Virus record (IMG/VR): IMGVR_UViG_3300042452_000984
Span: 1 to 64,000 of that record
Source of the DNA: a virus
Strand: one strand, 5' to 3'
Length of the DNA: 64,000 nucleotides
Shown here: positions 4,901 to 44,767 of the stretch, in pieces
Layout: each line of letters opens with the position of its first letter
Numbering within the stretch: position 1 is the first letter of the stretch
Position numbers and translations under genes: made by a program
The notes under the pieces: model-generated
The model's database searches: none
Told to the model about the DNA's origin: nothing
What the model saw: only the letters and a program-made list of their open reading frames with translations

Positions 4901-6958
4901 AGCCAAACCCTCACCCATGTAGATCGCTTGGCCGCCGCTAGCCTGCCGCCAGCGGAGCGGGATGAACTACTGGCCCACCTGCGATCGCTGGACCAGTCCG
5001 AAATGGCTCAAGCCCGTAACCGCCAGGGGGGTAAGTTTGCCGTTGAGATGGATGACTGGCTGGACAAGTATCACGAACTAAAGGGCAAGGACCGGCAGCT
5101 AGGGCTACTCACCACCGAGACAGAACGGCAGGGCGTCGATAATACTCAATGGCAACGCACCACCCTAGGCACCCAGGCGGAGCAGGACTTAAACGATGCC
5201 CTCCAAAGCGTCCTGCCGGGCTTTGAGCAAGTCAACTCAGCGGTAAACATCTACCCCGAAGTACGCTGGAATGGTGGCTTTGTCGCCCATCAGCGCGGGC
5301 TAAAGCTACTAGAACGCCAAAAGAAGATCGGCATGCACTATAGTGCTGGATCTGGAAAAACTGCGGGAATGCTCGGTGCTTTCACCCATTTGCAAAACCA
5401 GGGTAAAGTCACTCGCACCCTGGTAGCGGTGCCCTCCGGCATTCTGGGGCAGGCGGTGGGGGAATGTGCCACCTTCCTAGAACCTGGCAAATACAATTAC
5501 TCCGCCAATATTGGCTGGGACCGGGAGAAGCGCATCGAGGCACTGCGTAACCCCGATATGCACCTCCATTTTACCACCCGGGAATCCCTAGCCGGTGATC
5601 TATTGCACCTGGTGGAAAAACACACTGGCATCGGGGCGGAGGACTTTCAAAATACCGATGCTCGCAGTGAGGACGATCGCCGATCGCTCCTCCTAACCGC
5701 CCTACAGCAAGAAGGCATCGACCCCAGCAGCCTGCTATTCAGTGTTGATGAAGCCCACGACCTATCCCGCCGTCAGGGTGTATCACCGTCCCGGCGATCG
5801 CTGGTCCTTGATGCCCTGGCCCACCATAGCGCCTACCATATCAGCGCCACCGGCACGCCCTTAAAGAATGATGCTTCTGAGATTGCCGACTTCCTGCAAA
5901 AGGTGGGGGCACCTGAAGTAAAGGACGTTGGCGCCTTTATGGCCCGCTATGGCAAAAATACCCAGGCCAGCCGCCGTAGCTTACAGCGATTGGTAGCTAA
6001 GTACGCCTACGCGATCGCCGTCAAGCCTACCACCAAGGACGGGCAGGAGTTATCCATGCGGATGGAGCAGCCTAAGATCGCCCTGTCTGACCACCAAAAG
6101 ACTCAGCGGGCAGAACTACTAAAGCACTACGACACCCTACAAGCCTGGCGGGAGCAGGAACTACCCAAGATAATGGCGGCTAAGCGAGAGCGGGGCGATA
6201 ACTCACCCCTCAATGCCAAAGACCTTGCCCATGCCTGGGAGGATGAGGGCGTTAGAGCCGCGATCGCCGCCCTATCGCCTGAGTCCTACGGCAAGCTAGA
6301 CGATGCCACCAAGCAAGCCAAGGCAGGCGGGCAATTGCTAGGCGCCTCCGCGCTTAAGTACGCCGCCCTATCGCGGCTCTACCACCAGACTGACTACGCC
6401 AACAACGGCAAGGCGCAGCACGTCGTTAAAATGGCCGCCCAAGCCAAGGCAGGCGGTAAACCCATGGTGATCTTTGCCGCCTCCGCCCAGGCCGCCCAGA
6501 TGTTGCGGAACCAGCTTGCCAAGGAGGGGCACCGGGTTGGCTATATCGACGGCAACCTAGGGCCAGAGGAGAAGGACAAAGAACGCCTACGGTTCTCCCC
6601 TGTTGCGGACGAACAGGCGGAGACCGACATTCTAGTGACCACCGACGCCGCCCAGACCGGGCTTAACCTGCAACGGGGTAAGTTACTAGTCCACTACGAT
6701 ATTCCCCTTACCCAAAAATCATGGGACCAGCGCTCAGCCCGTATCTACCGCCGGGGCCAGACTGAGGACGTTGACGTTCATACTTTGGTCGCTGATGCCC
6801 CGGAGGACGCGATCGCCCTGGCCCGGATGCAGCGCAAAGGTAGTGACAGCGAACTATTCCAGGGTGCTGATGCCACCCAGGGCCATGCTGAACTACTAGA
6901 CGATACTGGACTAGCCGCCGCGATCGCGGAGTTTATGCAAGAGGATGATCCGGGTTGA
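1961..6958 (+). CDS. Large polyvalent protein with a C-terminal SNF2/SF2 helicase (DarB-like role)
   Basis: Motifs YSAGSGKT (I), VDEAH (II), SATGTP (III), TDAAQTGLNLQ (V) and QRSARIYRRGQ (VI). N-terminal LTKA and a WITIHPN...GAGGKLN module typical of phage head-associated proteins. Confidence 0.85.
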   Translation: MRTLTPKSKRKPLRPKGVFDLEIQPGDRLYFVGDDCELYRGEQCLGRYGYHWEDELTKAVQRTQLALVEGEEKPVKGPNVTSMKPEAKAPRAPKAPPKPEEQPQTGERWITIHPNKDNPDSYVRVKIRQHSDGTASVIAGAGGKLNQLRLTKLRSPEEWKERAAERKQKRLEKEEKRRAELSEGDRQAEDDETTQAREYHRGERHRNAKATLDAYQEAGLDHGLTPEHLAALDTPASADTDPEEAKQVEALAREAVQKAATIQKAYEQRLVQDHDARAAAKLGDESLEGLGNPLQQDIDHSAYGTDGNTISNLTQLPNGQWLVTGGDKADATFDTWQEAAKYHLGNVNEYDGTAGDRSQPDDFYNPKLWVANPDGVDFSPQLAGQMAALALQRKEIDRSDKAAGKAIKKKMPWKREQGFDIGGVSGIDDQAAIAQLDQDAKTIEDALTHGKLLDMAGLLDPQAMAKHLQTGGMAQLGEIASDVLKVAQVDPAIIAQMGHDEAAKLIAYQIRQAVGDREYQAIAAAQAAHHGQWSTEYANQVIAENQPRLDALRDIHRRMQEIEAAKDGDYTPDQLIELDTLSYQSETLQKSLQQSIGTALGQLQASAAMTLALESKPRSLRFAVKGSHGDVADVPGLLSTDDSPSIWSSYGLTAEDFSLEDGPDGQLVSIQPSGMEKLASATYNPEDRDAYEDAIAIKRGAYDEDGFTPAGFAYRPESTFTDVRAEAQQFDTTFNYQPEMDDAGVEQAIKQYLGARVANGDDPLSVRRDLFSPELYLNLGLNQDDALRVNGAVQAMDLKLFGKDAPGQAQIRSAYQELGDQAAAAQRSARATDDLQALHSQNLNTDTAKEAAHRALAAMPMARAVLKPMDQLSTQERKYLRDYAITEVMGETLEAPAKKEATPEEDVPQTGSLFDLGSYDEPGDKPTNDYREPSQWDRFCRIMGGEQKAYDAIRDRLKGNFYSRFASAYSAIEGKPLLTGSQTLTHVDRLAAASLPPAERDELLAHLRSLDQSEMAQARNRQGGKFAVEMDDWLDKYHELKGKDRQLGLLTTETERQGVDNTQWQRTTLGTQAEQDLNDALQSVLPGFEQVNSAVNIYPEVRWNGGFVAHQRGLKLLERQKKIGMHYSAGSGKTAGMLGAFTHLQNQGKVTRTLVAVPSGILGQAVGECATFLEPGKYNYSANIGWDREKRIEALRNPDMHLHFTTRESLAGDLLHLVEKHTGIGAEDFQNTDARSEDDRRSLLLTALQQEGIDPSSLLFSVDEAHDLSRRQGVSPSRRSLVLDALAHHSAYHISATGTPLKNDASEIADFLQKVGAPEVKDVGAFMARYGKNTQASRRSLQRLVAKYAYAIAVKPTTKDGQELSMRMEQPKIALSDHQKTQRAELLKHYDTLQAWREQELPKIMAAKRERGDNSPLNAKDLAHAWEDEGVRAAIAALSPESYGKLDDATKQAKAGGQLLGASALKYAALSRLYHQTDYANNGKAQHVVKMAAQAKAGGKPMVIFAASAQAAQMLRNQLAKEGHRVGYIDGNLGPEEKDKERLRFSPVADEQAETDILVTTDAAQTGLNLQRGKLLVHYDIPLTQKSWDQRSARIYRRGQTEDVDVHTLVADAPEDAIALARMQRKGSDSELFQGADATQGHAELLDDTGLAAAIAEFMQEDDPG

Positions 6959-8697: not shown

Positions 8698-8767
8698 CAT
8701 TTCTCCGTAGCAAAAACGCTATAGACGTGTTAAAAATACACTTGTGTTTTATTTTTGCTACACGCCT

Positions 8768-9880
8768 ATGCCTGGCATTCGCACTTTATACCCCCGTGGC
8801 AGTAAAGAGGACGGTCTAGGCGTATTCCTAGCCAAAATGGGCAAGCACAAGCTTCTCACCCCTGCCCAGGAGATAGAGCTAGGGCGCCAAGTGCAGGAGG
8901 GGCTATGGGCGGCGGCAACGGTCCTAAGCGATCGCGATCGCCGTCAGCCACTACAAGAAGATTTTGAACGCCAGCACCGTAGCGAACACGGTGAACTACC
9001 AACCCAGGTGGAAATTGACACCTACTTTGACGAGGCACGGCAGCGGTTAATTGATACCTACCGCCAGGGCCACCCGGAGGCGACAGAGGCGGAGATGCGA
9101 CGCCATTTTGAACGGGTAGCCCGGCAGGGTAAGAAAGCTTGCGACCAGATGGTGATTCGTAACCTGCGCCTAGTAGTGAGTGTGGCCCACAAATATTCCA
9201 AGCACGGGCTAGAGCTAGGGGATTTAATCCAGGAGGGCGTCGTTGGATTAGTGCGAGGGGTGGAAAAGTTTGACCCGGCCAAGGGCTATAAATTTTCGAC
9301 CTATGCCTACTGGTGGATTCGTCAGGCGATCACCCGGGCCATCAGCAACAAGGCAAAGTCGATCCGCCTACCGATCCACGTCGTTGACGTACTCAATAAG
9401 GTGCGCCGCTATGGGCATGTTTTCCGGGCTCAGCACGGACGCTACCCAAGCGATCGCGAAGTGGCCGAGCATTTCTCCTCCCGCAATGGTGTCTCCGTCG
9501 ATGAATGGATGAGGCGGCTACAGCAGTTCAAGGCGATGAATATCGCGCCGACTAGCCTGGACCATGTGGTGGATAACGGCGATCGCGCTAAAAGCACAAT
9601 CCACGACCTTGTAGGGGGTATCGATGATAGTTCTGTCAGTTTGTTTGGAGATCAGGTTATCGAGGAATTGGGCGCCGCTGTGGTGGGCTTGCCGACCCGG
9701 GAGCGGCAGGTGGTGGAGCTAAAGTACGGGCTGCTCAGCGGCACACCCAAATCCCTCAGTGAAGTAGCCAGGGAGATGGATGCACCACTGGCGACGGTAC
9801 GAACGATCCACGTCAGGGCATTACGACGATTGTCTAGGGAGCGGCGAGGCTTGCGATCGCTGCTCGAAGGACTGGAGTGA
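8768..9880 (+). CDS. RpoD-family (group 2-like) RNA polymerase sigma factor
   Basis: Region 1.2 [11 protein letters not shown]; region 2 [18 protein letters not shown] and [26 protein letters not shown]; region 4 HTH. Confidence 0.93.
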
Positions 9881-9921
9881 ACCTCGGTAGAATGGGGAGT
9901 AAATTACCCCTCCCCTACCCC

Positions 9922-12879
9922 ATGGCTATTACTACCCTGCGCCCGCTGCGCCCCCGGCGGGCTATTTTATTGCGCAAAGACGCCCAGCTAGGTTTATTTG
10001 GCGGTGAGACTGAGGTTAAACCGACAGCGGCGGCCAAGCGTCGGGAGCGAATGCTGCAGCCCAAGGCACCGCCTAAGCCACCCAAGCCCAGCACCAGGGC
10101 GACAGCACCCAAAGAGGGTGACACCCGTATCAACCGGGCAGGCAATGAGGAGGTATTGCGGGCAGGGCGGTGGCGATTGGCTAGTAACCCTAAGGTGGTT
10201 GCCAAGGATAGGGGAAGCGCTGCGATCGTCCCGGTGGTGGAGGCGGAAAAGCCTATGCCTGAAATGGACGAGGACGCGATCGGCCCGGCTGTGGAAGAAC
10301 CCATGGTGGAGGCGAAACAAAACGTCAGCGCTGAAGAGGCAATGATGCAGCGCTATGCTGCACCTGATGTCACCTACACCTCAGATGGTCCGACGCAAGG
10401 CTTTCCTGGAGGCTACGACGAATCCTTTGCGCGAAAAACCGTTAGAAGCCTCAAGACGCGACTAGATCTTCTGCGTTCGAGCGAAGCGATCGCAAGGCGG
10501 AATGCCAAATATTCTCCGAAAGCTTATGCTGAAAGCTATGAAAAGCATCAAAGAACCAAGCAAGCATTTTTGTCAAGCTTGACGCCTTTAGATGACAGGC
10601 TAATAGACCTATTGCCGCCAGAAAATACTAAAAGGCAAGTTGAAATAGACAAAAAAATAGTAGAAGAGTGGATGGACTTGAACCCTGTCCGTGTTTCTGC
10701 TGACTACGTTCGAGTGCTAGCTGCAATGACTCCCGAGGAAGTCATAAAAAGGAACATGAGATCTGTTCCAAATCAAACCTTGTCTGACGAGTTTGCCAAG
10801 TATGCCGTAAGAAGCGGGCTGTATTGGACAGACTCCCGAACGGGAGGCAGCTTTCAGCTAGGGCCAGATTTAACTCGAGAACTTAAGCTAGCCGACAGAG
10901 CTAAGCGAATTTTTGGAATCAGTGTGGCGGAAACTCCAGACGACAGGGGGCAGATAAACAAACCTGCCGCCAAACCCAAAAGCCGACGCAAACCAGTAGA
11001 ACCGGAACCCACCGCCGTCCCCGCCGAGGTGATTGACGATGCACCCAAACCTACCAAGCTAGGCGATCGCATCCGAGCGATCGCCAATGACCTGCGTGAC
11101 GAAAATGATGAGCAGAAAAAGATCGCGGCCCGCATCCTAGGCGCAGCGGCCCAGATGGCACAGAACTACGACAACTTAGTGGGTGAAGTTGTGGATATGG
11201 TGGGCGAGGACTTGGGTGAGGACATCAGAAGCCTTAACCCAGACGCCACCCAGGCGGACGTAGAGATGGTAGCCAGAGACGGCGGCAACGAGCCACCCCC
11301 CACCCGACTGGCTGACAAAATGAAGGCGATCGCTAATGACCTGCGCAACGAAACCAACGAGCAGGTTAAGGCAACCGCCCGCATCCTTGACGCTGCCGCC
11401 CAAATCGCTCAGAACTACGACAACCTAGTCGATGAAGTGGCGGAGATGGTTGGCGAAGACCTTGAGGCGGGAGGGGGTGCGATCTCGCCTGCTGTGGAGG
11501 AACCCATGGTGGAGGCGGAGGAATCCCAGAAAGAAAAATTTGAGCGCATATACAGCCTTAGCACAGGCAAAAGGCTTAGAGCCTTAAATGAACTACCAAA
11601 CGATGAATGGCAAGCCTATTCAGAATGGGAAAAAAACAAAGGAAATGAGACCGCTTCTCCGCCAGAACCTCAAGAAAAAAGTGAGCCTGTAGCGGAAGAA
11701 GAAAAAGACGATCTTTTGTCCGATCCCTTCGCCGCCGACATTTCGCTATCTATGGCGCGACAGGCTCATGCAGGCACCTCTTTTGATCCAGACAAGCGCG
11801 GAGAAGATGAGGTCCGCGATTATGTGCAGCATTTACGCGCTGTCCAGAATAGCTTAAACAATATTGCCGAGACTCCAGAACAGCAAGCACTGGCGGCGGC
11901 GGAGTTTGATCGCTATCGGCAAGGCTACCAACGTCGCTACACCGACAGCCTAGCCCGCCGTGGTCGGATCGTATCTCCGATGATAGTTGGCCCAGCACGG
12001 TTCCCCGTTGACCAGATGGAAAAACGGCGTAGCTCCTACGAGCGATCTATCAATGAACTACTGGAATGGAGCGATCGCGCCCAAAACGCAGCCAAGAAGG
12101 CAGTCCTTGCCGCCGCCCCTGGCGGTGACCCGACCGCGCCAATATCCAGCGATGACCCTGACGCTATAAAAAAATTGCAGGCTCAGATTGATGCTGCTGA
12201 AAAGCGACAGGCGGCAATGAAGGCTGGCAATAAGATCGTGGTCGATAAGACTCTGACCGATGGTCAGAAACTTGCCAAGTTGATCGAGCTAGGCATTGAA
12301 AAATCTGATGCAGAATATGCACTTAGACGAGATGGTACTGACTCTCGCCCATACGGGTTCCAACGCTTTCAATTCTCTAATAACAGCGCCAACATTCGCC
12401 GGATGAAGCAGCGGATCGTCACATTAGAAAAAAAGCGTAGTCAATCAACTCGTTCCATCACTGTTGGCGACATCAAAATCACTGACGATGTAGAGGCAAA
12501 TCGTTTGCGGTTAGTATTCCCTGGTAAACCGTCAAGCGAGGTACGCGACAAGCTAAAGCGATCCGGCTTTAGGTGGTCTCCGAAAGAAGGCGCATGGCAA
12601 CGGATGAGAAGCAATGACGCTATTTATGCCGCAGAGCAAGCACTAGGGATCAAGCTCACCAAATCCTTGCCCCCTGGCCCCGTCTTCACCCTAATGGGCG
12701 CGCCCTATATCTTCGACCCTAACCGCGCCGTCCTACGCAAGGCTGGCACCAGTTGGGAGCAATTTGTGGCTGACCTCAGCAAGGAAGCTGATGACGACCC
12801 ATGCTGGAAGGGCTACGAGGCTGTAGGTATGAAAAAGAAACGCGGCAAGATGGTTCCGAATTGCGTCCCCATTAACTAA
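9922..12879 (+). CDS. Polyvalent head-cargo protein with a duplicated helical module, a DUF3560-like region and a C-terminal CWKGY...VPNCV module
   Basis: SPMIVGPARFP, ISSDDPDAIKKL, SNNSANIRR and GFRWSPKEGAWQR resemble polyvalent/anti-restriction proteins of mobile elements. Also carries LRKD, LTKS and LRKA motifs. ATG 9922 is preferred as start. Confidence 0.7.
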   Translation: MAITTLRPLRPRRAILLRKDAQLGLFGGETEVKPTAAAKRRERMLQPKAPPKPPKPSTRATAPKEGDTRINRAGNEEVLRAGRWRLASNPKVVAKDRGSAAIVPVVEAEKPMPEMDEDAIGPAVEEPMVEAKQNVSAEEAMMQRYAAPDVTYTSDGPTQGFPGGYDESFARKTVRSLKTRLDLLRSSEAIARRNAKYSPKAYAESYEKHQRTKQAFLSSLTPLDDRLIDLLPPENTKRQVEIDKKIVEEWMDLNPVRVSADYVRVLAAMTPEEVIKRNMRSVPNQTLSDEFAKYAVRSGLYWTDSRTGGSFQLGPDLTRELKLADRAKRIFGISVAETPDDRGQINKPAAKPKSRRKPVEPEPTAVPAEVIDDAPKPTKLGDRIRAIANDLRDENDEQKKIAARILGAAAQMAQNYDNLVGEVVDMVGEDLGEDIRSLNPDATQADVEMVARDGGNEPPPTRLADKMKAIANDLRNETNEQVKATARILDAAAQIAQNYDNLVDEVAEMVGEDLEAGGGAISPAVEEPMVEAEESQKEKFERIYSLSTGKRLRALNELPNDEWQAYSEWEKNKGNETASPPEPQEKSEPVAEEEKDDLLSDPFAADISLSMARQAHAGTSFDPDKRGEDEVRDYVQHLRAVQNSLNNIAETPEQQALAAAEFDRYRQGYQRRYTDSLARRGRIVSPMIVGPARFPVDQMEKRRSSYERSINELLEWSDRAQNAAKKAVLAAAPGGDPTAPISSDDPDAIKKLQAQIDAAEKRQAAMKAGNKIVVDKTLTDGQKLAKLIELGIEKSDAEYALRRDGTDSRPYGFQRFQFSNNSANIRRMKQRIVTLEKKRSQSTRSITVGDIKITDDVEANRLRLVFPGKPSSEVRDKLKRSGFRWSPKEGAWQRMRSNDAIYAAEQALGIKLTKSLPPGPVFTLMGAPYIFDPNRAVLRKAGTSWEQFVADLSKEADDDPCWKGYEAVGMKKKRGKMVPNCVPIN

Positions 12880-12888
12880 CACTCCACC

Positions 12889-14541
12889 ATGAAAACTTTT
12901 ACCCTTGCAGGCGATCGCTACACCGCGATCGCGTCCCCCCGTGGCATCGTCTTTCGCAAAGCGGCGGACTTTGACACCCGGCTACCGATGGATGCTGAAC
13001 AGCGGGGCAGCATTGGCGCCGACCTGAATGCCTTGCTGTGTTCGCTAATAGACCTACGCCTATCGCTGCAACTAGCCCACTGGAATGTGAAGGGCATTAA
13101 TTTCCAGCAATTGCATGAACTTTTCGATAAGTTGCAAAAAAGCCTATTGCCCCACATTGACCTGGTGGCTGAGAATGTAGCCACCCTGGGGATGGTGGTG
13201 GTAGGCACTGCGGACGATATCGGCGATCGCACCATCCTGATGCCCTACAGCAATGGCAGCGACCAGTACGCCATCCTAGACGAACTAGCGGACCGCTACG
13301 CTTACCTAATCCGCCACATGATGGACTTGGTTGAGGAGCTACTGGCTGATGGCATCCAGGGGATTGCTGACGTACTGATAGGCATCCACATGGACATGGA
13401 ACGCAACGGCCTTTATTTTCTAGAATCCCATATCCCTAGCGCTAACCTACAGAAGGCAGCCAGGCGATCCATGCTGGAGGAGGGCGCTACCAAGGAACAC
13501 AACGGCGTCACCTACCGGCTCAATAAAAACCGTCGCTGGGAACGGAGCGATCGAGGCAGTAAGCCAGCCAGGAGCAGAAAGCCAAAGCCTCCCGGTGGTG
13601 TAGTGCCCGTCATCGCTATGGATGGCGCTAAAGCAAAAGGTAAGCCGAAAGCAATGCGCTTTGACAGCCGTCCCCCGGGCGGCGCCCAGGCGATGCAGCA
13701 GGGCAAGTTAAACGCTAAGGCACAGCGGGCGGCGGCCAAGGTAACGCCCAAAGCATCCCCCGCGAGTAAGCCTGCTAAGGCGAAAGCGGCCCCGGCGGAT
13801 AAGGTAAAGCCGAAGACGAAAAGAGCTGAGGTAAAGCCGAAGGCAGAGAAAGCCCAGCCAAAGGCAAAAGCGATCGCGTCCTATGGTGAGTTCAAAAACG
13901 AAGTTGCTAGGATCTACGACAAGCTCAACACTGAAGAAAACCTAGGCAACATGGTGCCTATCTATCGCATTCGCCGCGAGCTAGGCGATCGCGTCTCCCG
14001 TGCGCAATTCAGAGAATGGTTGCTTGACGTGCAAGCGGAGGACAAGATCCAAATGATGGGCGGTGTTACGGAGGGCTCAACCGACGATCAACGAGCCGAT
14101 GGCATTATGATGCCGGGCGGCAGAATTAGGTTTTACGTCAAAAAGCTAAAGGACTTTGACGGCAACGACGAGGCAGATTCATCTAACGCTCGCCAGCAGC
14201 CTAAGCCATCAACGCCGTTGCAACCTAAGGCGAAAACAACGCCCATCAAGTCCTACGACGACTTTAAGAGCGAAGTAGCCAGCACCTATGACAGGCTGAA
14301 CAAGGACTACAACCTAGGCGGTTTAGTTCCTATCCACCGCATCCGCCGCGAGCTAGGCAACCGTGTCTCACGCAAGCAGTTTGATAACTGGTTGATCGAT
14401 GTCCAGGTCGACGATCATGTGCAGCTGATGGGCGGCGCCTTGCCCAACGCTACCCAGGCAGACAAAGATGATGCCCTGCAGATAATGGGAAATCTCCGCT
14501 TCTACGTCAAAAAGTTGAGAGACTTTGGCGGTAAGCCTTAA
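12889..14541 (+). CDS. Dps/ferritin-like domain fused to a cargo leader, a basic linker and two repeated putative DNA-binding domains
   Basis: Dps signature AHWNVKGINFQQLHELFD...IDLVAE; two ~90-aa repeats containing VPI[YH]RIRRELG.RVSR.QF..WL. Confidence 0.8.
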   Translation: MKTFTLAGDRYTAIASPRGIVFRKAADFDTRLPMDAEQRGSIGADLNALLCSLIDLRLSLQLAHWNVKGINFQQLHELFDKLQKSLLPHIDLVAENVATLGMVVVGTADDIGDRTILMPYSNGSDQYAILDELADRYAYLIRHMMDLVEELLADGIQGIADVLIGIHMDMERNGLYFLESHIPSANLQKAARRSMLEEGATKEHNGVTYRLNKNRRWERSDRGSKPARSRKPKPPGGVVPVIAMDGAKAKGKPKAMRFDSRPPGGAQAMQQGKLNAKAQRAAAKVTPKASPASKPAKAKAAPADKVKPKTKRAEVKPKAEKAQPKAKAIASYGEFKNEVARIYDKLNTEENLGNMVPIYRIRRELGDRVSRAQFREWLLDVQAEDKIQMMGGVTEGSTDDQRADGIMMPGGRIRFYVKKLKDFDGNDEADSSNARQQPKPSTPLQPKAKTTPIKSYDDFKSEVASTYDRLNKDYNLGGLVPIHRIRRELGNRVSRKQFDNWLIDVQVDDHVQLMGGALPNATQADKDDALQIMGNLRFYVKKLRDFGGKP

Positions 14542-21617: not shown

Positions 21618-22156
21618 GGAGACTGTTATTGCTCGACCACACCGCCCTGGTGCAGCACCGGAATGGCCCCGGTGTCTACATCAACAACCGGGACAATATG
21701 ACATTGGTTCCAGGCATTCTAGGCGCCCTGGAGCCCTACGTTGACAGGAACTACAACGTCGCCATCTGTAGCAACCAGGGCGGCGTCGAGAAAGGCCACC
21801 TAGCGTTCGGTGCTTGCCAAAACCTATTCGGTGAAATGTTCAAGCTGTCCAACTATTGGGTTCAGGCCATTTGGTTTTGCCCCCTAGCCCGGGGCAGCAC
21901 CGGCAGTTATGCCATTCAAATGACGATGCCCTACGAACCCAAGACCTATACCAAATGCCAAAAGTATGCCACCACCGGCTACCGGATGCCCCAGGCGGGC
22001 ATGATTTTGGCCGCCATGGACTGGTTTGGGGTAACGCCTGAGCAGACCACCATGGTGGGCTTACAGCCGGAGGCTTACTATGCCGCCGCTGATGCAGGCG
22101 TCAAAAAGTTTGTCCACAGTTCGTACTTTGTTGAAAAAGCGGGAGTATTGCAATGA
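21614..22156 (+). CDS. HAD-IIIA (GmhB/PNKP-like) fold protein with degenerate catalytic motifs
   Basis: SNQGGV, R.P.AGMIL and MVG...AA..AGV are retained; DxD, Lys and GD..D appear substituted. Confidence 0.7.
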   Translation: MRRLLLLDHTALVQHRNGPGVYINNRDNMTLVPGILGALEPYVDRNYNVAICSNQGGVEKGHLAFGACQNLFGEMFKLSNYWVQAIWFCPLARGSTGSYAIQMTMPYEPKTYTKCQKYATTGYRMPQAGMILAAMDWFGVTPEQTTMVGLQPEAYYAAADAGVKKFVHSSYFVEKAGVLQ

Positions 22157-23271
22157 AATTTACAGTAGATGCGGGTGATCTGGCAGAGGCGATCGCGCTG
22201 TGCGATCGCGCTATCCCTAAGCGCCCTAGCCGCCCTATCCTGGGCCACATGCTAATGCAGCTAGACAATGGCAGCCTTACCCTAAAAGGGTTTGACGAGG
22301 CGCTAGGGATTAGCTTCTCGTTGCCAGTGGATATGGAGCAATCCGGTGATTGTTGCATATCCCCAACCTACCTAAAGCCCATCCTGGAGCGCCTATCCGG
22401 GCAGGTGGCCTTAGACCTGCAATACCCTGTCCTGGTGCTAACCACCCTGGGCGCCGAGTACCGGATTAACACCCTCCTGGCTGAGGACTACCCCAACTTG
22501 CCCGAGGTGGACGGTACCCCGGTGGAGTTGTCTATCTCGTCAGAGGAACTACGAGCCGCGATCGCGGCTACGGTGTTCTGCGCCAGTACTGACGAAAGCA
22601 AGCAGGTACTTACCGGCGTTCACTTCTCCGTTACCCCCGGCGAAGGGGGGGAGGCAGGGGTGATGGAGTTAGCGGCCACCGATGGCCATCGGATGATCGC
22701 CTACCCGCTACCCGGTAGCGTTGTCATCCCCGATGACTATCGCCCCGTCACCCTGCCCGGGAAGAGCCTGCGGGAACTGCTAACCGTCCTGAAGGGCGAG
22801 GGTGCCGTCAAGCTGACGTTTGATGACGTGTCTGTGCGTGCCCTATGCGGGGACACCGAGCTCTATAGCCGGGTTATCGAGGGGCAATACCCCAACTACC
22901 GGCAGCTATTCCCCAAGGTGTTCTCTAAGGTGGCGACCTGCGATCGCAAGCCATTCTTAGCCGCCCTCGATCGCACCTTGGTGGTGGCCGGTGAAAACAA
23001 GGACATCGTTAAGCTGGAGTTTGACACCACTGGGCTGGTGATGAGTGCAGAGGCAAAAGAAGCGGCCAAAGCTCAGGAACATGTCGAGGGCGTAACCTGT
23101 AGCGAACCCATCACCCTAGCGGGGAACGGTAAGTACATCAAGGAGGCGCTAACCAATGCGATCGTGGGTGAAACCTTCACTATGGAAATGAATAAGCCAG
23201 AAAGCCCAGTGGTTTTTACAGATGGGTCCCCGGCGACCTATTTAATGATGCCCATTCAGATTAGGGGTTAA
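22153..23271 (+). CDS. dnaN: DNA polymerase III beta sliding clamp
   Basis: 372 aa; RPSRPIL, STDESKQVLTGV, AATDGHR, IEGQYPNYRQLFP and YLMMPIQI. Confidence 0.93.
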   Translation: MKFTVDAGDLAEAIALCDRAIPKRPSRPILGHMLMQLDNGSLTLKGFDEALGISFSLPVDMEQSGDCCISPTYLKPILERLSGQVALDLQYPVLVLTTLGAEYRINTLLAEDYPNLPEVDGTPVELSISSEELRAAIAATVFCASTDESKQVLTGVHFSVTPGEGGEAGVMELAATDGHRMIAYPLPGSVVIPDDYRPVTLPGKSLRELLTVLKGEGAVKLTFDDVSVRALCGDTELYSRVIEGQYPNYRQLFPKVFSKVATCDRKPFLAALDRTLVVAGENKDIVKLEFDTTGLVMSAEAKEAAKAQEHVEGVTCSEPITLAGNGKYIKEALTNAIVGETFTMEMNKPESPVVFTDGSPATYLMMPIQIRG

Positions 23272-23273
23272 CC

Positions 23274-23453
23274 ATGGACCTACAGCCCGGTTACGCGATC
23301 GCCTATCGTCCATCCACGGAAGAGCCCTGGCAGCAAGCGTCTGTCTTTGCGGTCATTGGCGACAAGGTGATGGTTAAGTTGCCCCTGGGCGGCAACACGT
23401 CCAGAATCGTCACGGTGGACATTGACAGTGGTTTGATAGGGCCACCGTTCTGA
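23274..23453 (+). CDS. Small hypothetical protein (59 aa, MDLQPGYAIAYRP...)
   Basis: Translated by hand; TGATG coupling to the next gene. Confidence 0.55.
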   Translation: MDLQPGYAIAYRPSTEEPWQQASVFAVIGDKVMVKLPLGGNTSRIVTVDIDSGLIGPPF

Positions 23454-24193
23454 TGCAGGAGTTTTACATAGGCTGGCATCAGCCCGTCAACGGCCTGTCT
23501 GGCTGCGGGGATTTTCCCCGGTGCATGGTGTCAGTCAATCGACTTCTAAGGCGTCGCTCTCCCTTCCCGGTTCAGTCCTGGATATTGGATAGCGGCGCTT
23601 TTACTCGCATTGCTGGCGGACAAGGGCACCTGCCATTAGAAGACTATGCCAAAGAGATCCGGCGATGGGCAAAAAACGGCAACCTTGTGGCAGCTGTGGC
23701 ACAGGACTATATGTGTGAACCATTTATCCTTGGCAAGACCGGGCTAACAATCCAAGACCACCAACGGCTAACCATAGAGAACTACGATCGCCTGCTTGCC
23801 CTAAATACCGGCGTCTATATCATGCCAGTATTACAGGGCTACTCTCCCGCTGACTACGTTAGACACCTGCACGATTACGGCGATCGCTTGCACCATGGAC
23901 AATGGGTAGGGGTGGGTTCTGTCTGCAAGCGAAACAGCAACCCTGGGGCAATTGAAGCCGTCTTGATGGCGATTAAGGCGGCCCGCCCCGATCTGAGGTT
24001 GCACGGGTTTGGCGTTAAGAAGACCGCCCTAGAATCTTCAATTGTGTGGGACTTACTTTACTCAGCAGACAGCCAAGCCCATAGCTTTGCAGCACGGATG
24101 GAGAACCGAAACGCCAATTGCCCAAAGGTTGCGCTTAATTACGCCAAAGGCATCGGCAGCCCCTTGCAGGCATCCATATTTTCAGCGTTCTGA
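23453..24193 (+). CDS. DpdA-like / tRNA-guanine transglycosylase-like DNA deazaguanine-inserting enzyme
   Basis: ILDSGAF, AQDYMCEP, PVLQG, VGVGSVCKR, LHGFGVK and SADS motifs of the TGT fold. Confidence 0.75.
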   Translation: MQEFYIGWHQPVNGLSGCGDFPRCMVSVNRLLRRRSPFPVQSWILDSGAFTRIAGGQGHLPLEDYAKEIRRWAKNGNLVAAVAQDYMCEPFILGKTGLTIQDHQRLTIENYDRLLALNTGVYIMPVLQGYSPADYVRHLHDYGDRLHHGQWVGVGSVCKRNSNPGAIEAVLMAIKAARPDLRLHGFGVKKTALESSIVWDLLYSADSQAHSFAARMENRNANCPKVALNYAKGIGSPLQASIFSAF

Positions 24194-24710: not shown

Positions 24711-27700
24711 ATGGTTCTTCCTCTGGAGGCTATCCTGTCCAAGTCAGCCGATATGGTTGTGGGCGGGGTAGCCTCCAATTTTTTTAGAGATCTTGACGGC
24801 GATGCCATTTGCCCGGACGCGATTCAACGCGCTATTCCTGGCTTCATGGCAACCCGTGGCCCGGACGGGCTAAAGGGTGGCCCCATTCGCCTGCACCATG
24901 GTTTTTGGGAGCGATTTCTAAAGCAGTCCATCTCTGCCCTTAATATTCCCTACGACCAGCAAGTGGGGCTACTTGCCGCGATCGCGCTCCCCCTGGGCCG
25001 GGTGACTGAGATGAGCGTTGATAGCGATGGCACTACGCGTTGGCGGGGTGTTCTATCTGGCGCTAACCCCATCGCCCGGGTGGTGTGGAATATGCTCAAA
25101 GAGGGCATGGTTCACCTTGGCGTTAGCGTTGGCGGCAAGATCAACGGTGTACGCCCCGGTAGAGATGCGATCGGGCGGACCTGTAACCTAATTACCGACG
25201 TGCGGCTCGATGAGCTCAGCATCACTGACAACCCAGCCAATCGATTAATTGAGTCCGAGACCCCCGACAATGGCGCGTACATTACCGCGCTTGCTAAATC
25301 TGTGGGTAATACCATGCTCGCTCAGAAACAACAGCCTTACATCTACCTGAATGGCATCGCCTATACCGCTCACCCTAGCGAGGAACATGGCATTGTCCTA
25401 CGCAAGGCAGGACGGCGGCGGGCACCCTCCCCGGGCCAGCTAGGCTTGTTTGGTGGGCACAATGAGGGCGATACCAAGGTAGAGGACGGTGTTACCTATC
25501 GGCTAAATAGCAATAGCCGGTGGGAGCGGATGGATAAACCCAAGGCCAGCGGTAAGCCGTCTGGCGGGAAGAAGAAGGCGGAAAAGCCTGCGATCGTCCC
25601 GGTGGTGGAGGCGGAGAAACGAGCAGAGACACCAGCAAAGGCAAAAGCGGCTAAGCCGAAGGCAAGACGACAAAAGGAGCCAAAACCATATCTAGAAGAT
25701 CAAAGCCCTTCATTATTGGCGGCAGAGCTAGACAAAATTAAGAATTTTCTGGCATTGGCTGATGCTGGACTTGTAAGCATAACTCCCAGAAAGCGCAAGC
25801 AAACCGAGGCTTACCTGAAGCAGGTCAAAGACGCACTTTTTGAAATAACCAAGCCTGACGACGACGCGCCAAGCATGTCTGACAACGATCTCCTGCAGGA
25901 GCTAGGCGTAGCAGGCATGTCTGACGACGACCTTATGCGAGAGCTAGGCGTTGAACCCGCCGCCCAGAACCCCGAACCCACCGTTGGCGAAATGCTGGAA
26001 CAGCAGCAAGCGGAGATAGCTGAGTCGAAACCAGTTATCTCAGGCAGGCAATTTGTCGAAGAGTTTATTTCCGCCTGGAATGACACCCATGGTTCAGAGT
26101 GGAACCGCGATGCTGCGGGGTACACAAAGGCCAAAATATGGGACAAAAAAGACGGGGAGATCCGGGTTTACTTTGGCTCCGTTAAGCAGCCATTGGTTTT
26201 CAGAAAGCAAGATAATGGCGAATACGTCGCCGCTGTAACCCCTGGTAAGTATGGACTTGACGAACAAATCGCCCCTATCCTTGACGATCTAAATTCACGG
26301 TTTTCTACCAAGCCTGAAAGCACTAAGGCTGACCAAGGCTCTGCCGGAACCCAGCAACGAGTATTGATGCAAGAAGACGAAGACGGCGTTGTTGCACCTG
26401 CAGGACAACACGAACGTGGCGTCCATATCGTGCGGGAATGGTACGAGTCAGAACCATCTCCCAAGCCCACCGTTGGCGAAATGCTGGAACAGCAGCAAGC
26501 CGCGATCGCGGATGAGCCTATGCCTGAGAGTGAGGCGATGGAGGGGGCGGAGGATGGTGCGGCACCCACATGGGAAGACGTGCCTCAACTTTTTGAAAGC
26601 GGTGACTACGAAAAAATCCCTCAAGCCCTAGGAGTAGATCCTAGATATGGGCTGTCCCCGAGTCAGGCGTCTAGGTTTCTAAACATCCTTGGAATAAAAG
26701 AAGCTAAAGCCAAAAAGATTCTTGGGCAGGGCTACCTAGAGCAAGAGCGAAAAGAATACCCAAGCATTCAACCCGATCCCGATCCTAAACGCTACTACGA
26801 TCTTGATAAGCTCGTTGACGCCATTAACGAGGCAAAGGCGTTTAAGGGAGTCAAGGCGCTGCAAAAACCTAAGGCAGAGCGCCCTAAGCGCGAACTAAAA
26901 GAAGAAGAGCTTACGCTAACGGATAATGACTGGAAGAGGCTAGCCAAGCTAAAAGGCGCCATGCCTTTCTCACCAAATTTTCTAGGTGATGGAGTTGGTG
27001 CGGAAACCTACTATTGGGTGCCAAATCATGCAATAAAAGACGCCGAATACCTAAAAAGAAAGTTAGGTTTTTATATAAAGCGCGATTTTAGCTGGAACAG
27101 AATAGAAGGCGCCAACTTTGTTATGCGGGAAGACGTCATTGATAATGTACTTGGCTACATTATTAAACCTAAATCCGAGCCCGCCGCCCAGGACCCCGAA
27201 CCCACTCTCACCAAATCTCTCACCCCCTCACTCCCCATGACTATCGATAACTTCCTCCGCAAAGCCCTGGGTAATCCTGGGCGTGAGTTTGGTTCTGGCT
27301 CATGGCGGGATACGGGCATCCCGGCGATGGGCCGTAAAGTTGACGCCAAAAGCCCGCAGCCCAAGGGCGGCAAAAAGGTACAAATGGATGAGTCCGGTAG
27401 TGCCCATGCCGGTAAGGGTATCGGTGGCAAACAACCCAAGGCCCATCGCCCCTACTCTTCCGGCGGCATGCCCCCCACCGATGTATTTGGTATCACCATC
27501 ACCCAACTAACCCGCAACTTGGCCAAAGCCTGCTACATGGACAAAGATGCCTGGGGTAGCCCGGAGACCGTTTCTTTCTTGACCGACAGCGCCAGGGCGA
27601 TCGCGGGCATGACTGACACCCCGACCGACCCGATGGTGAACTTTGTCCGGTTTTTGCAATACTGCACCCGTTTCGCCCAAGAATTGCCGTTTATGAACGA

Positions 27701-27875
27701 CTACCAGGCGGCGGGGACGGTGAAGGCGATGAATGCCGACCTAACCAAAGCGCTGGACGAATTCGTAGAGAAGATGCCTGAGGAGCTAAAGGGAAAACCT
27801 TTGCGCCCTGCCGGTTCACCCGGCGTTGTGGGCATCGACGTTCAGTTTCCCCAACAGTACGTTATTTACTCCTAG
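24711..27875 (+). CDS. Prohead (maturation) protease with a large in-frame cargo insert and a C-terminal helical domain
   Basis: N-terminal ~195 aa show the HK97-like protease pattern RDLDGD, IRLHH, VSVGG, LDELSITDNPAN; lies upstream of scaffold and capsid. Confidence 0.8.
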   Translation: MVLPLEAILSKSADMVVGGVASNFFRDLDGDAICPDAIQRAIPGFMATRGPDGLKGGPIRLHHGFWERFLKQSISALNIPYDQQVGLLAAIALPLGRVTEMSVDSDGTTRWRGVLSGANPIARVVWNMLKEGMVHLGVSVGGKINGVRPGRDAIGRTCNLITDVRLDELSITDNPANRLIESETPDNGAYITALAKSVGNTMLAQKQQPYIYLNGIAYTAHPSEEHGIVLRKAGRRRAPSPGQLGLFGGHNEGDTKVEDGVTYRLNSNSRWERMDKPKASGKPSGGKKKAEKPAIVPVVEAEKRAETPAKAKAAKPKARRQKEPKPYLEDQSPSLLAAELDKIKNFLALADAGLVSITPRKRKQTEAYLKQVKDALFEITKPDDDAPSMSDNDLLQELGVAGMSDDDLMRELGVEPAAQNPEPTVGEMLEQQQAEIAESKPVISGRQFVEEFISAWNDTHGSEWNRDAAGYTKAKIWDKKDGEIRVYFGSVKQPLVFRKQDNGEYVAAVTPGKYGLDEQIAPILDDLNSRFSTKPESTKADQGSAGTQQRVLMQEDEDGVVAPAGQHERGVHIVREWYESEPSPKPTVGEMLEQQQAAIADEPMPESEAMEGAEDGAAPTWEDVPQLFESGDYEKIPQALGVDPRYGLSPSQASRFLNILGIKEAKAKKILGQGYLEQERKEYPSIQPDPDPKRYYDLDKLVDAINEAKAFKGVKALQKPKAERPKRELKEEELTLTDNDWKRLAKLKGAMPFSPNFLGDGVGAETYYWVPNHAIKDAEYLKRKLGFYIKRDFSWNRIEGANFVMREDVIDNVLGYIIKPKSEPAAQDPEPTLTKSLTPSLPMTIDNFLRKALGNPGREFGSGSWRDTGIPAMGRKVDAKSPQPKGGKKVQMDESGSAHAGKGIGGKQPKAHRPYSSGGMPPTDVFGITITQLTRNLAKACYMDKDAWGSPETVSFLTDSARAIAGMTDTPTDPMVNFVRFLQYCTRFAQELPFMNDYQAAGTVKAMNADLTKALDEFVEKMPEELKGKPLRPAGSPGVVGIDVQFPQQYVIYS

Positions 27876-27890
27876 CTAGGTAACTAGAAA

Positions 27891-28715
27891 ATGGACCCAC
27901 AAACCCTACAAGCCTTGATGGGAGTATTCCAACAAGGCTTACAAATTCTGCAATCTGCCCAGGCGGGTGCCGGCGCGCCCCCTACCGCTGGTGCCCCCGC
28001 CGCCAATGGTGCCCCCGCCGCCAATGGTGCGCCACCCATGGCCGCCGGTGCCCCTCCCGCCATGGACCCCGACGACGAGGACATGGAAGAGGATGACGAG
28101 GACATGGATGCCCCCGATGCCATGGATGCTGATGATGACGAAGACGACATGGACGACAGCGGCATGGGTGGTTCCTCCCTGCACGATCGCGTCAGTCAGC
28201 TAGAAAACCACACCGGCCTTAAGAAAAGCGCCCGGGGTGGCTCCTTACTTGATGCCGTCGCTGCCCTCGAAGAAACTATCCTTGGCACCGAATACGAAGG
28301 TCCCCTAGTAGATCGCGTCAACCAATTAGAGAAAGCGGCAGGTATCAGCCAACGCGCCCAGGACCAAGCACCGGACGAAATCCCGCTAGAAAACTTGATC
28401 AAAAGCGCGATCGAATCCGGCATCCAACAAGCCATGGCAACCCGTGACCCGGAGGCCAACGAAGACCCGGACGCTATCCCCGACCTACGCCAGATGCGCA
28501 AAGCAGCCAAGGGCCAGCGTTATGGCAGTCGTAAGGGCGTCGCTGGCGCGATCGTCAGTGATGAGGACCTGGTAAAGAGTGCTGCCAGCCTTGGCTGGGA
28601 CGGCGATGACCTGGACCGCCCCGTGTCCTTCGGTGATGCGCTGTTGCTGCAATACCATTCACAACAAGCGGGTGAGCCACTGCCATTTTCAGCCGATGAG
28701 GCTGACGACGATTAA
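27891..28715 (+). CDS. Capsid scaffold-like acidic protein
   Basis: Between protease and capsid; acidic and coiled; LKKS, LEKA, LIKS, MRKA and LVKS motifs. Confidence 0.7.
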   Translation: MDPQTLQALMGVFQQGLQILQSAQAGAGAPPTAGAPAANGAPAANGAPPMAAGAPPAMDPDDEDMEEDDEDMDAPDAMDADDDEDDMDDSGMGGSSLHDRVSQLENHTGLKKSARGGSLLDAVAALEETILGTEYEGPLVDRVNQLEKAAGISQRAQDQAPDEIPLENLIKSAIESGIQQAMATRDPEANEDPDAIPDLRQMRKAAKGQRYGSRKGVAGAIVSDEDLVKSAASLGWDGDDLDRPVSFGDALLLQYHSQQAGEPLPFSADEADDD

Positions 28716-28743: not shown

Positions 28744-29733
28744 ATGACAAACGCTGCGCTTACCCGTCGGGCGCTACTGAAATCGCTAGGCATTAGCGAT
28801 GGCGGTGGTGCCGAGGTTACCCTCCAAACCACGATCGCCTCCGAGGTGATCCCCCTGATCCGGCAACAATGCTTCATGCGGCAGATCGCTGACCGCAGCA
28901 AGAGCCTGATCAATATGACCAAGCCCAAGATCCGCATCCCCAAGCTGGTACGCGCCCAAGGTGCCTACAGCGTCAAAGCGGGCCAACCGGCGCCGGAATT
29001 TAAGGCACGACTCGACAGCATCGACCTAGTGCCCGAGAAGCTGATGACCTGGCTACCCGTGGACCAGGAAGTATTCGAGGACAGCACTATTCGAGATATT
29101 GAAGGGATGCTCAAAGAGGAAATGGCACGGGAATTTGCCCAGGCGGAAGAACTTGCCTTCCTGCTAGGGGATACCACCGTCGACCATGGCCCCGGCGACC
29201 CTAAGAATGTTTTTAATGGGTTATTCGCCCAAGCTGGAGCAACGCCCTACACCTACGACGCCTCCCTTGACACCAGCGCTAACGCTGTTGAGGCCGGTAC
29301 TGTCACCAGCAACCTGGTACGCGCCATGCGCTACCTAGGCATCTACGGACGCAATAAGCGCGACGTAGTGGTGATGGTGGGCCTAGCCTGGGAGGAAGCC
29401 CTCCTGCGTAACCGTAGCTTCCAAACCATGAGCAGCTACGCCTATGGCTCTGGCGCTGGTATCTTCACCGGTGAGATCGGACGCCTAGCCGGTGCCCCGG
29501 TCATTGCTACCACCTTCCTGGATGCGCAACCCGGTGAAACCTACGGAAAAGCCCTGGTAATGAACCAATCAGCCTTTGCTATTGGGGACTGGCAGCGATT
29601 TAACATCAGGGTATACAACGAGATCCTGAGCCAGACAGACCAAACTGCAATCAGGGCAAGGGAACGTTTAGCCTTTACCGTTCGCTACCCTGAAGCTATT
29701 GTTGAAATTCTCAACGTTCCGTCTCAACCGTAG
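28744..29733 (+). CDS. Major capsid protein (HK97 fold)
   Basis: 329 aa; EMAREFAQAEELAFLLGD, FNGLF, GRLAGAPVI and RARERLAFTVRYPEAIV. Confidence 0.9.
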   Translation: MTNAALTRRALLKSLGISDGGGAEVTLQTTIASEVIPLIRQQCFMRQIADRSKSLINMTKPKIRIPKLVRAQGAYSVKAGQPAPEFKARLDSIDLVPEKLMTWLPVDQEVFEDSTIRDIEGMLKEEMAREFAQAEELAFLLGDTTVDHGPGDPKNVFNGLFAQAGATPYTYDASLDTSANAVEAGTVTSNLVRAMRYLGIYGRNKRDVVVMVGLAWEEALLRNRSFQTMSSYAYGSGAGIFTGEIGRLAGAPVIATTFLDAQPGETYGKALVMNQSAFAIGDWQRFNIRVYNEILSQTDQTAIRARERLAFTVRYPEAIVEILNVPSQP

Positions 29734-43963: not shown

Positions 43964-44767
43964 ATGAAAATTTATACCCTTGCCGGGGTGCCCTATATCC
44001 CAGTGGTGACCGCTGGGGGCATTGTCCTAAGGAAAGCGGGACGACGGCACCAAGTGTCGCCAGGGCAGTTAGAGTTATTTGACACCCAACACCAGCAGGG
44101 CGAAACCCGCACCAACCAAGCGGGCCACCAGGAGGTGCTGCAAGAGGGGCGGTGGCACCTCGCTAACAGGACTGGACAGCCACAGCAGCAGCCAACAAAG
44201 AATCCTGCCACAATGCGATGGCACGTTACAGCGGCAGGAGATTTAATCCGGGAGAAAGGCTTTCAAGTTGGGCTTGGCGGTGGAGCGGGCGGTCCTCTGT
44301 CCGGCAAAGGCATTTCAGTTTGGAAAGACAAACAAAAGGCAGATCAATTTCACAAGCAAATGCAAGAACTTGAAGACATAAGGTCTTCGGGTGATCCATT
44401 AAAAGCGGCAGAAGCTGCCACCAACCAGCCAATTAGCTTAACTGACGGTATGGCAGGGCTGTGGGCTGGAAAGTTAGGACGCGCACTAGACTCCCGAGAA
44501 CGTGCAATCATTCATGCTCAGTCGCTACTCAGCCCATACATACCGCCTGACTCGTTCTTTGGAGATGGGCCAAGGAGAAAATTTGAAAATCTCGCCGTCC
44601 ATGTTTCCTCTGAGTCGCAAGAAAATAGCGATGGATGGGTTAATGATGACGAAGAATTGCATAGTCCTGAAAAGGTAAAGCTGGCACAACCGCAGCAGCC
44701 AACGCTCACCATAGAAGGACTCCATGCTCTACGCCAACAAGTTGCCCAGGAGTTAGCTAGTGGATAA
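43964..44767 (+). CDS. Head-cargo protein with a possible ADP-ribosyltransferase-like domain
   Basis: Cargo leader MKIYTLAG...GIVLRKAGRR and QLELF; WHVT...IREKGF...GKGISV pattern. Confidence 0.55.
   Translation: MKIYTLAGVPYIPVVTAGGIVLRKAGRRHQVSPGQLELFDTQHQQGETRTNQAGHQEVLQEGRWHLANRTGQPQQQPTKNPATMRWHVTAAGDLIREKGFQVGLGGGAGGPLSGKGISVWKDKQKADQFHKQMQELEDIRSSGDPLKAAEAATNQPISLTDGMAGLWAGKLGRALDSRERAIIHAQSLLSPYIPPDSFFGDGPRRKFENLAVHVSSESQENSDGWVNDDEELHSPEKVKLAQPQQPTLTIEGLHALRQQVAQELASG

Follow-up and report, generated by a model that had tools for sequence, protein, structure and literature searches.

An exchangeable in-frame insert between the protease and C-terminal domains of a phage head gene, probably cargo for the prohead

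What are some 650 additional residues doing in the middle of a phage prohead protease, and what would become of them when the head matures? The question is raised by a stretch of 64,000 nucleotides (nt), here called the window, that covers positions 1 to 64,000 of the uncultivated virus record IMGVR_UViG_3300042452_000984 (82.6 kb, linear, with a completeness estimate of 78%). The virus is a tailed phage, in which a tail sheath, a head-tail adaptor, an HK97-fold capsid protein, a sigma factor, and DpdA are all recognizable. Its open reading frame (ORF) at 24711-27875 (+) encodes 1054 amino acids (aa), made up of an N-terminal 196-aa prohead-protease domain, an insert of ~650 aa, and a conserved C-terminal domain of ~200 aa. 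We conclude that this gene probably encodes a polyprotein in which a cargo cassette separates a capsid-maturation protease from a scaffold-like or capsid-targeting C-terminal domain, and that this polyprotein would load a cargo of ~67 kDa into the prohead.

The insertion site and its occupants

Relatives of the protein were gathered in two word-indexed searches, which returned 72 database matches (24 + 48). Both end domains (the N-terminal 197 aa and the C-terminal ~210 aa) occur in 56 of them; the other 16 are fragments or leader-only proteins. Among the 56 two-domain relatives, 34 are free of an insert (gap of -9 to 37 residues between the domains, total length 372-449 aa), and 22 carry inserts of 107-902 aa at the same junction with different content. 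The ~420-aa versions and the alternative inserts that a first-pass annotation of this DNA had predicted for related phages are thus both found, and the homologues do not share one full-length region. The basic form in relatives is ~420 aa long and consists of the protease domain, a helical C-terminal domain, and, between them, a short disordered linker that begins and ends with an L-x-K-[S/A/T] motif. As aligned with its relatives, the window protein has its passenger in the linker that joins its protease domain to its own conserved C-terminal domain. The annotation had placed this passenger inside the prohead protease; it is indeed inserted in frame in that protein, but the site is the inter-domain linker and not the catalytic domain.

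A maximum likelihood tree was computed for 48 of 57 two-domain proteins (17 with and 31 without an insert; nine that lack >20 N-terminal residues were dropped). It needs at least six gains or losses of the insert, at least four of which are forced by well-supported branches. Insert-bearing lineages have insert-free sister lineages: P0027, with only 15 aa, neighbors P0013 and P0014, whose inserts measure 902 and 861 aa, respectively, and the clade of the window protein is next to P0029 and P0030. Three proteins with identical protease domains, namely, the window protein (P0001), P0004, and P0005, have inserts of 646, 462, and 437 aa, respectively. Judging from these alignments and the tree, the insertion site is a natural inter-domain linker, and the insert came and went repeatedly.

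The window protein is laid out as follows, with P-numbers for proteins from the searches and L001 to L008 for eight related loci fetched from IMG/VR.

24711..24743 (+): N-terminal propeptide, aa 1-11, with L-S-K before S12 (predicted cut site 1); of the 32 insert-free relatives that are complete at the N terminus, most have a motif (L-x-K-[S/T]) here
24744..25298 (+): prohead serine protease domain, aa 12-196, with invariant H63 and S139 and with L-A-K before S197 (predicted cut site 2); assigned from fold, hhalign, and conservation
25299..25406 (+): leader, aa 197-232 (~4 kDa), containing M202, with L-R-K before A233 (predicted cut site 3); aligns with the extreme N termini of free-standing proteins (ORF 43964, P0072, P0073, and P0091)
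25407..25610 (+): constant cargo head, aa 233-300, with GRRR, QLGLF, a G-x-T-K...Y-x-L-N...R-W mini-module, and a basic spacer ending in IVPVVE; common to 11 close protease variants and 13 free-standing proteins
25611..25952 (+): cargo module A, aa 301-414, with a basic stretch, a helical segment, and a 14-aa tandem duplicate; in L004 only among the fetched loci, and in P0002, P0005, and P0007
25953..26024 (+): linker repeat 1, an acidic Pro/Gln-rich spacer and recombination breakpoint, with direct repeats D1 and D3; the L006 and L007 homology blocks begin at 25953
26025..26453 (+): cargo module B (M3), aa 439-581, a small alpha/beta domain with free-standing proteins of 118-178 aa among its homologues; AlphaFold2 (AF2) predicted local distance difference test (pLDDT) score of 83.8
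26454..26558 (+): linker repeat 2, a recombination breakpoint with the second D1 copy; L006 and L007 homology stops at 26556
26559..27176 (+): cargo module C (M4), aa 617-822; absent from 8/8 fetched loci, present in P0003, with its N-terminal part in P0084, P0085, and P0088
27177..27263 (+): linker repeat 3 and L-T-K before S836 (predicted cut site 4), a 16-aa spacer, and F-L-R-K before A852 (predicted cut site 5); a D3 copy lies at 27177-27205
27264..27872 (+): conserved C-terminal domain, aa 852-1054, with a disordered basic stretch, a helical bundle, and a conserved tail, and with the motifs L-A-K-A (937-940) and L-T-K-A (1011-1014); assigned from conservation and the AF2 model of P0026

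All of the landmarks listed in the first-pass annotation are present where it had put them: LAKS at aa 194-197 (nt 25290-25301), the in-frame ATG at 25314 that encodes M202, and a first LRKA (aa 230-233) followed by QLGLF, GVTYRLN, and a Lys/Pro-rich linker, and then LTKS at aa 833-836 (nt 27207-27218) and a second LRKA at aa 849-852 (nt 27255-27266). The middle of the gene, which had been described as visibly more A-rich, has an A content of 0.299, compared with 0.195 in the N-terminal domain and 0.229 in the C-terminal domain, and its AT skew is 0.16-0.35 over 25400-27200 versus -0.17 to 0.03 upstream.

Comparison with the fetched loci resolves the insert into exchangeable parts. In the flanks (~24000/24636-25611 and 27210/27235-29000), six of the eight loci share 94-98% identity with the window; between these flanks they differ from it. 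Homology blocks begin or end at 25611, 25953, 26556, and 27210, positions that coincide with direct repeats encoding the acidic linker (D1, 53 nt, 89%; D3, 29 nt, 93%). DNA homology to L003, L006, L007, and L008 ends at 25611 and that to L005 at 25618, and flank homology resumes at 27210-27235 in six loci. When 13 near-identical proteins are split at the linkers, we read ~12 module types in combinations of two to four; the modules of the window recur among them, A in the three relatives listed above, B in P0002 and P0004, and C in P0003. Near-identical phages have exchanged modules, and the breakpoints lie at the linker repeats. The tandem duplicate within module A, at 25870-25951, is a separate repeat (D2, 40 nt, 83% identical, spacing 42 nt).

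Modules B and C retrieved 26 proteins in an exhaustive HMMER search. Module B is also found on its own, as a free-standing protein of the size given above, and both modules occur in free-standing, leader-bearing multi-module proteins (P0091 and P0085). A Foldseek search with the AF2 fold of module B gave no match at E<=0.001, and its best VIA score (Z 6.4, to a KA1-like domain of METTL16) is below the tool's meaningful level. For module C, a protein atlas search gave no usable match, and aa 687-780 match PHROG 16184 weakly (E 0.0041). In the inserts of relatives, Pfam identifies two ParB_N domains in P0013 and a DnaJ domain in P0015. The close variant P0012 contains, by our own reading and with no family match, two repeats of a J-domain-like stretch, one of them with the HPD tripeptide. 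Chaperone-recruiting modules may therefore be a recurrent type of cargo.

The first part of the insert is constant. Residues 197-300 form a constant head that opens with a short, hairpin-like leader ending in L-R-K-A. A search with aa 209-280 identified 25 proteins, of which 11 are protease-embedded and 13 free-standing (155-816 aa); the remaining one, P0035 (336 aa), begins partway through the constant head and resembles a fragment. The leader of the free-standing proteins begins at or near the first Met, and two more matching copies are encoded in the same virus record (ORFs 12889-14541 and 43964-44767). By this comparison, the embedded insert looks like a captured leader-bearing cargo gene, and the ATG at 25314 may be a remnant of its start codon. 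M202 is located 5 residues after the LAKS site and 8 residues before the stretch that aligns with the N termini of free-standing leaders. It is kept in the 11 close variants and missing in P0013, P0015, P0017, and P0020. Thus, the internal ATG noted in the first-pass annotation exists and is in frame, but it is not kept outside the closest clade. Start-codon contexts show no visible ribosome-binding site for any gene in the region, and promoter- and terminator-like sites are not in excess there (4 promoter-like sites versus 3.0 +/- 1.7 in shuffles).

Both leader-related ORFs, as well as a third ORF, have features of their own. ORF 12889-14541 encodes 550 aa with a Ferritin/Dps-like domain (PF00210, E 4e-12, aa 45-166); L-Q-K-S (aa 82) lies inside this domain and L-Q-K-A (aa 187) after it, and the G-x-T-K...Y-R-L-N...R-W mini-module that is also found in the protease insert comes next. 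This protein, too, may be a polyprotein loaded into the head. ORF 43964-44767 encodes a free-standing protein of 267 aa with the same leader start (hairpin, L-R-K-A, GRR, and QLELF) and no Pfam family. ORF 9877-12879 encodes 1000 aa with PHROG primase-like and DUF3560 matches and ends in a cassette of L-T-K-S, hairpin, and L-R-K-A with a conserved Cys-containing tail; P0024, P0068, and P0085 end in the same way. QLGLF (25434-25448) and QLELF (44063) closely follow a predicted cut site, and they resemble the sliding-clamp-binding consensus, QLxLF. The 372-aa product of ORF 22153-23271 is beta-clamp-like by inspection.

Protease fold and predicted cut sites

The structure of the two end domains was modeled with AF2 for the insert-free relative P0026 (32-sequence alignment; 81-83% identical to the window protein in the protease domain). 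The model has a confident domain at aa 18-196, disorder at 198-300, and a helical bundle at 306-403. The best structural matches of its N-terminal domain are T4 gp21 (5jbl_A; Z 10.0, root mean square deviation 3.4, 137 aa) and the varicella-zoster virus (VZV) protease (1vzv_A; Z 8.6), and Foldseek gives 5jbl a probability of 0.99. An hhalign comparison with HK97 gp4 (probability 85.7%, E 5.4e-6, 172 columns) aligned the His and Ser motifs; H63 and S139, invariant in 36 sequences, align with the N-H and M-S-V-G motifs of gp4, which would hold its catalytic residues, H65 and S114. In the same alignment, A-L-A-K-S at the end of the catalytic domain pairs with A-A-M-K-S of gp4, and the start of the C-terminal part aligns near gp4 aa 170-179. 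The protease domain has a weak match to the PHROG head maturation protease (E 0.0056), and a PDB sequence search with the 1054-aa protein gave 0 matches. On the strength of the modeled fold, the N-terminal domain is a prohead protease of a divergent branch, which we file at the superfamily level because only the profile comparison reaches the family and direct searches stay below the curated thresholds. The C-terminal ~200 aa are conserved, up to and including the extreme tail, and by analogy this domain is a putative capsid-targeting or scaffold-like part.

Downstream of the protease gene lie two further head genes, in the order protease, acidic 274-aa protein, and PF05065 capsid protein, which is shared by the window, L001, L002, L003, L005, and L007.

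27891..28715 (+): acidic 274-aa protein, a candidate scaffold, with four L-x-K-[S/A] motifs
28744..29733 (+): HK97-fold major capsid protein (PF05065, E 4.3e-30), with a 13-aa N-terminal propeptide and L-L-K before S14

The same short motif recurs in all three proteins. Motif counts were made for 54 of the 67 ORFs of >=120 aa (13 that overlap, are antisense, or are open-ended were dropped), with expectations from shuffles. L-x-K-[S/A] occurs seven times in the protease protein (0.85 expected), four times in the 274-aa protein (0.15), and once, at aa 11, in the capsid protein (0.16). The Leu and Lys of four sites in the protease protein are invariant or nearly so in 36 relatives with a mean identity of ~50%: L849 and K851 are nearly invariant, and L937, K939, L1011, and K1013 are invariant. 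The 274-aa protein has no family match in Pfam, PHROGs, or NCBIfam. A relative of 46% identity, in L001, keeps the four motifs in the scaffold-like protein and one near the capsid N terminus, and their number and approximate positions in the scaffold-like protein are also kept in L002.

The capsid protein begins with 13 aa that end in L-L-K and are followed by S-L-G; L11, L12, and K13 are invariant in four relatives, and TIGR01554 aligns capsid aa 12 to profile position 101. HK97 gp5 is described as being cut between K103 and S104 (PMC10275583). Its sequence there reads F-N-K and then S-L-G, and the sequence of HK97 gp4 contains L-T-K-S and A-M-K-S.

The placement of the motif in the insert-bearing proteins is equally regular. 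In the 22 such proteins, all insert motifs are located <=33 aa from the N-side junction or <=19 aa from the C-side junction, except one (P0014). The insert interiors, 9337 aa in total, contain 1 L-x-K-[S/A/T] versus 11.5 expected from shuffles; many inserts share modules, so that the samples are not independent and the difference is not a clean probability. These counts of placement and depletion omit P0058, the C-domain start of which is off the pattern. Taken together, the conservation of the motif at both junctions, its match to the HK97 K103/S104 site, and its depletion inside inserts fit the proposal in the first-pass annotation that putative cleavage sites bracket the passenger. We infer, with good support from the sequences compared, that L-x-K-[S/A/T] is the cut site of the protease. 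The predicted products are as follows.

aa 1-11: N-terminal propeptide, 1.2 kDa
aa 12-196: protease, 19.8 kDa
aa 197-232: leader, 4.0 kDa
aa 233-835: cargo (A233-K835, 603 aa), 67.1 kDa, pI 5.3
aa 836-851: spacer, 1.8 kDa
aa 852-939, 940-1013, and 1014-1054: C-domain pieces of 9.1, 8.2, and 4.5 kDa

Loading of the cargo and competing explanations

As a polyprotein, the protein would work as follows. The C-terminal domain would carry the whole chain into the assembling prohead, for which the C-terminal propeptide of SPN3US gp245 is an analogy (PMC7411985). The C terminus of HK97 gp4 and herpesvirus scaffolds provide further analogies. The protease would then cut after the Lys of L-x-K-[S/A/T], which would free the protease itself, the 4-kDa leader, and one 603-aa cargo. 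The C-terminal domain would be chopped into pieces of <=9.1 kDa that can leave the shell, as T4 scaffold fragments escape the prohead (PMC7411985). The cargo would be retained because it is too large to escape, whereas all other products but the protease are small enough, and it would stay with the DNA in the capsid. More speculatively, it would be injected with the DNA and act early in the next host, for example, in counter-defense, a role that the rapid turnover of modules would fit.

Besides the shared modules behind the depletion count, several observations weigh against this explanation. Cleavage, packaging, and injection are predictions from sequence and analogy. The window protein, P0026, and P0050 have no NCBIfam family, and the window protein has no Pfam family either; P0058 scores 17.1 bits against a prohead-protease cut-off of 21, and the protease domain thus stays below the curated Pfam (Peptidase_S78, PF04586) and NCBIfam thresholds. 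A targeting role for the C-terminal domain is argued from analogy because a fold search with the P0026 model matched its bundle to generic helical bundles only. The cut motif is loosely defined, since at the C-side site four close variants replace the L with F or I (FTKS and VIKS). None of the three cargo modules of the window has a function recognizable in Pfam, atlas, or fold searches, so that an effector role is a guess. Finally, no cultured relative was found, as tblastn searches of cultured phages with the window protein and the capsid protein gave no match; the same search with P0026 gave one weak match, to the capsid maturation protease of Rhodococcus phage NiceHouse (24.6% identity, E 5e-3).

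The insert might instead be a structural part with no role in the next host, such as a larger internal scaffold or core, or a protein that condenses DNA or otherwise fills and organizes the capsid interior. Its location in a protease/scaffold gene suits such a part, as do the Lys/Arg/Pro-rich, histone-tail-like composition of the constant head and module A, the acidic, low-complexity linkers, and the fact that family, atlas, and fold searches found no enzymatic domain in the window modules. However, most two-domain relatives do without any insert, and the combination of identical protease domains with different modules would be unexpected for a part that must fit a fixed shell. Nor do the ParB_N and DnaJ domains of some inserts, the free-standing small proteins made of module B, or the presence of the N-terminal part of module C in other multi-module proteins agree with a structural role, and we consider this explanation unlikely. 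A nested gene is another candidate: initiation at the ATG at 25314 would yield a protease-less protein of leader, cargo, and C-terminal domain in higher copy, and it could coexist with the polyprotein. Lambda C/Nu3 is a precedent for such an arrangement. The position of M202 between the LAKS site and the leader alignment, and its presence in all 11 close variants, would be explained by a nested start, but the Met is absent from the four relatives named above, and the region has neither a visible ribosome-binding site nor an excess of promoter-like sites. A nested product thus seems quite unlikely to be the explanation.

It is also conceivable that the modules act in the producing cell and that the fusion provides late co-expression only, with no retention in the virion; a J-domain might, for example, recruit host DnaK for assembly. 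The DnaJ domain of P0015 and the HPD-containing stretch that we read in P0012 are what one would look for in that case. An insert that lies between the protease and the conserved C-terminal domain must, however, travel with that domain, and prohead proteases of model phages act inside the prohead (T4 and SPN3US; PMC7411985). The depletion of motifs within inserts, moreover, is understandable only where the protease has access to the cargo, and we regard a function confined to the producing cell as improbable. Lastly, the assembly or the gene calling could have joined several genes in one frame, and the window does derive from a linear contig of an uncultivated virus that is estimated to be incomplete. 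Yet the frame is open in the window, in the independent contigs L003 to L008 with their different inserts, and in 22 of 22 insert-bearing proteins, always in frame with the C-terminal domain, so that an artifact is hardly credible.

An intein was considered and rejected. A Pfam search of the 1054-aa protein gave neither a Hint nor an intein family, and in relatives that lack the insert the junction holds 1-37 variable residues together with the same cut motifs. The first-pass annotation had called the passenger intein-like, a comparison that we abandon: there is no Hint domain, and the flanks need no re-ligation. Because cut motifs flank the junction even where no insert is present, the two halves probably come apart in any case, and the protein is better compared with a viral polyprotein.

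Returning to the polyprotein explanation, we can extend it, though only as a tentative possibility. The linker between the protease and the scaffold-like domain may be a dedicated cargo slot, with the linker repeats as exchange points and with a constant head, made up of a QLxLF motif and then the R-W mini-module, that steers the delivered protein to a sliding clamp or to DNA in the new host; the phage has a beta-clamp-like protein of its own. Injected effector modules would then be shuffled far faster than the head genes diverge, in an integron-like manner at the level of protein domains. The slot already has a predicted self-cleavage site on either side, so that loading and release would require nothing further.

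If the polyprotein explanation is true, tailed phages would have a simple natural way to load arbitrary proteins, as a gene put in the protease-scaffold linker would be packaged and released automatically. It would also explain virion proteins that annotation misses because they are hidden inside "head protease" genes. The turnover of modules among near-identical phages would mark them as likely players in the conflict between phage and host and would supply a list of candidate domains. The slot, the linkers, and the L-x-K-[S/A] sites together would constitute a natural design for protein delivery by phage particles.

Related systems and other genes of the window

Polyvalent proteins, as set out in the text of Iyer, Burroughs, Anand, de Souza, and Aravind (2017, PMC5512222), contain several domains and are predicted to be processed by an assemblin-like peptidase, packaged, and injected. 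The protein studied here resembles those described there in that unrelated small domains are joined in one polypeptide among virion genes, are mosaic in orthologues, and include ParB in the cargo. It differs in that the peptidase is C-terminal in the architectures given in that text, whereas here it is N-terminal (aa 12-196) and the cargo precedes a scaffold-like tail. An insert-free form of 420 aa is common here, unlike among the polyvalent proteins of that description. We may be dealing with a different architecture of the same general idea, and the N-terminal case may be included in the full architecture lists of that paper. In the open-access papers searched, supplements excluded, we found no description of cargo embedded between a prohead protease and its C-terminal domain.

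With HK97 gp4 and gp5, the locus shares the protease fold with its His and Ser motifs, the Lys of the capsid motif followed by S-L-G, and a C-terminal extension of the protease, whose junction aligns with the insertion site here. Unlike the protein in the window, gp4 is only 225 aa long and has no cargo. The scaffold of HK97 is the 103-aa delta domain of the capsid protein, whereas here there are a 13-aa capsid propeptide and a separate scaffold-like gene. Work by Duda, Oh, and Hendrix in 2013 reportedly found that the C terminus of HK97 gp4 targets proteins into the capsid.

Proteins that are packaged and delivered are established in other phages. T4 IPI-III and Alt have a capsid targeting sequence, are cut by gp21, and are ejected with the DNA (PMC7411985), and P1 DarB carries an N-terminal signal (PMC9024508). 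The free-standing leader proteins (ORF 43964, P0072, P0073, and P0091) would fit this class. In T4 and P1, however, the cargo genes are separate and the signal is N-terminal, whereas the cargo here is in the protease gene and its leader is internal (aa 197-232). The T4 cleavage motif is L/I-x-E, compared with L-x-K here.

Herpesvirus UL26, lambda C/Nu3, and P2 gpO combine an N-terminal protease of assemblin fold, self-cleavage sites, and a C-terminal part proposed to bind the shell. To our knowledge, the middle of these proteins is scaffold sequence and does not contain exchangeable unrelated modules. The window protein is like this type in that a herpesvirus protease (VZV) is among the fold matches of the P0026 N-terminal domain. 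In retroviral Gag-Pro-Pol, enzymes are packaged by fusion to a structural or targeting part and are freed in the particle by an embedded protease. This analogy is a functional one only: the proteins are unrelated and the protease class differs, and family and fold searches did not show the cargo here to be enzymatic.

Three other genes of the window deserve mention. The gene at 1961-6958 encodes 1665 aa with a C-terminal SNF2/ResIII helicase and ~1100 N-terminal residues that have no assignment. A sigma-70 family factor with regions 1.2, 2, 3, and 4 is encoded at 8744-9880. Directly upstream of the head genes, at 23453-24193, is a gene for a DpdA-family transglycosylase of 7-deazaguanine DNA modification (PF23859, E 5.4e-37; PHROG 1279, E 2.3e-58).

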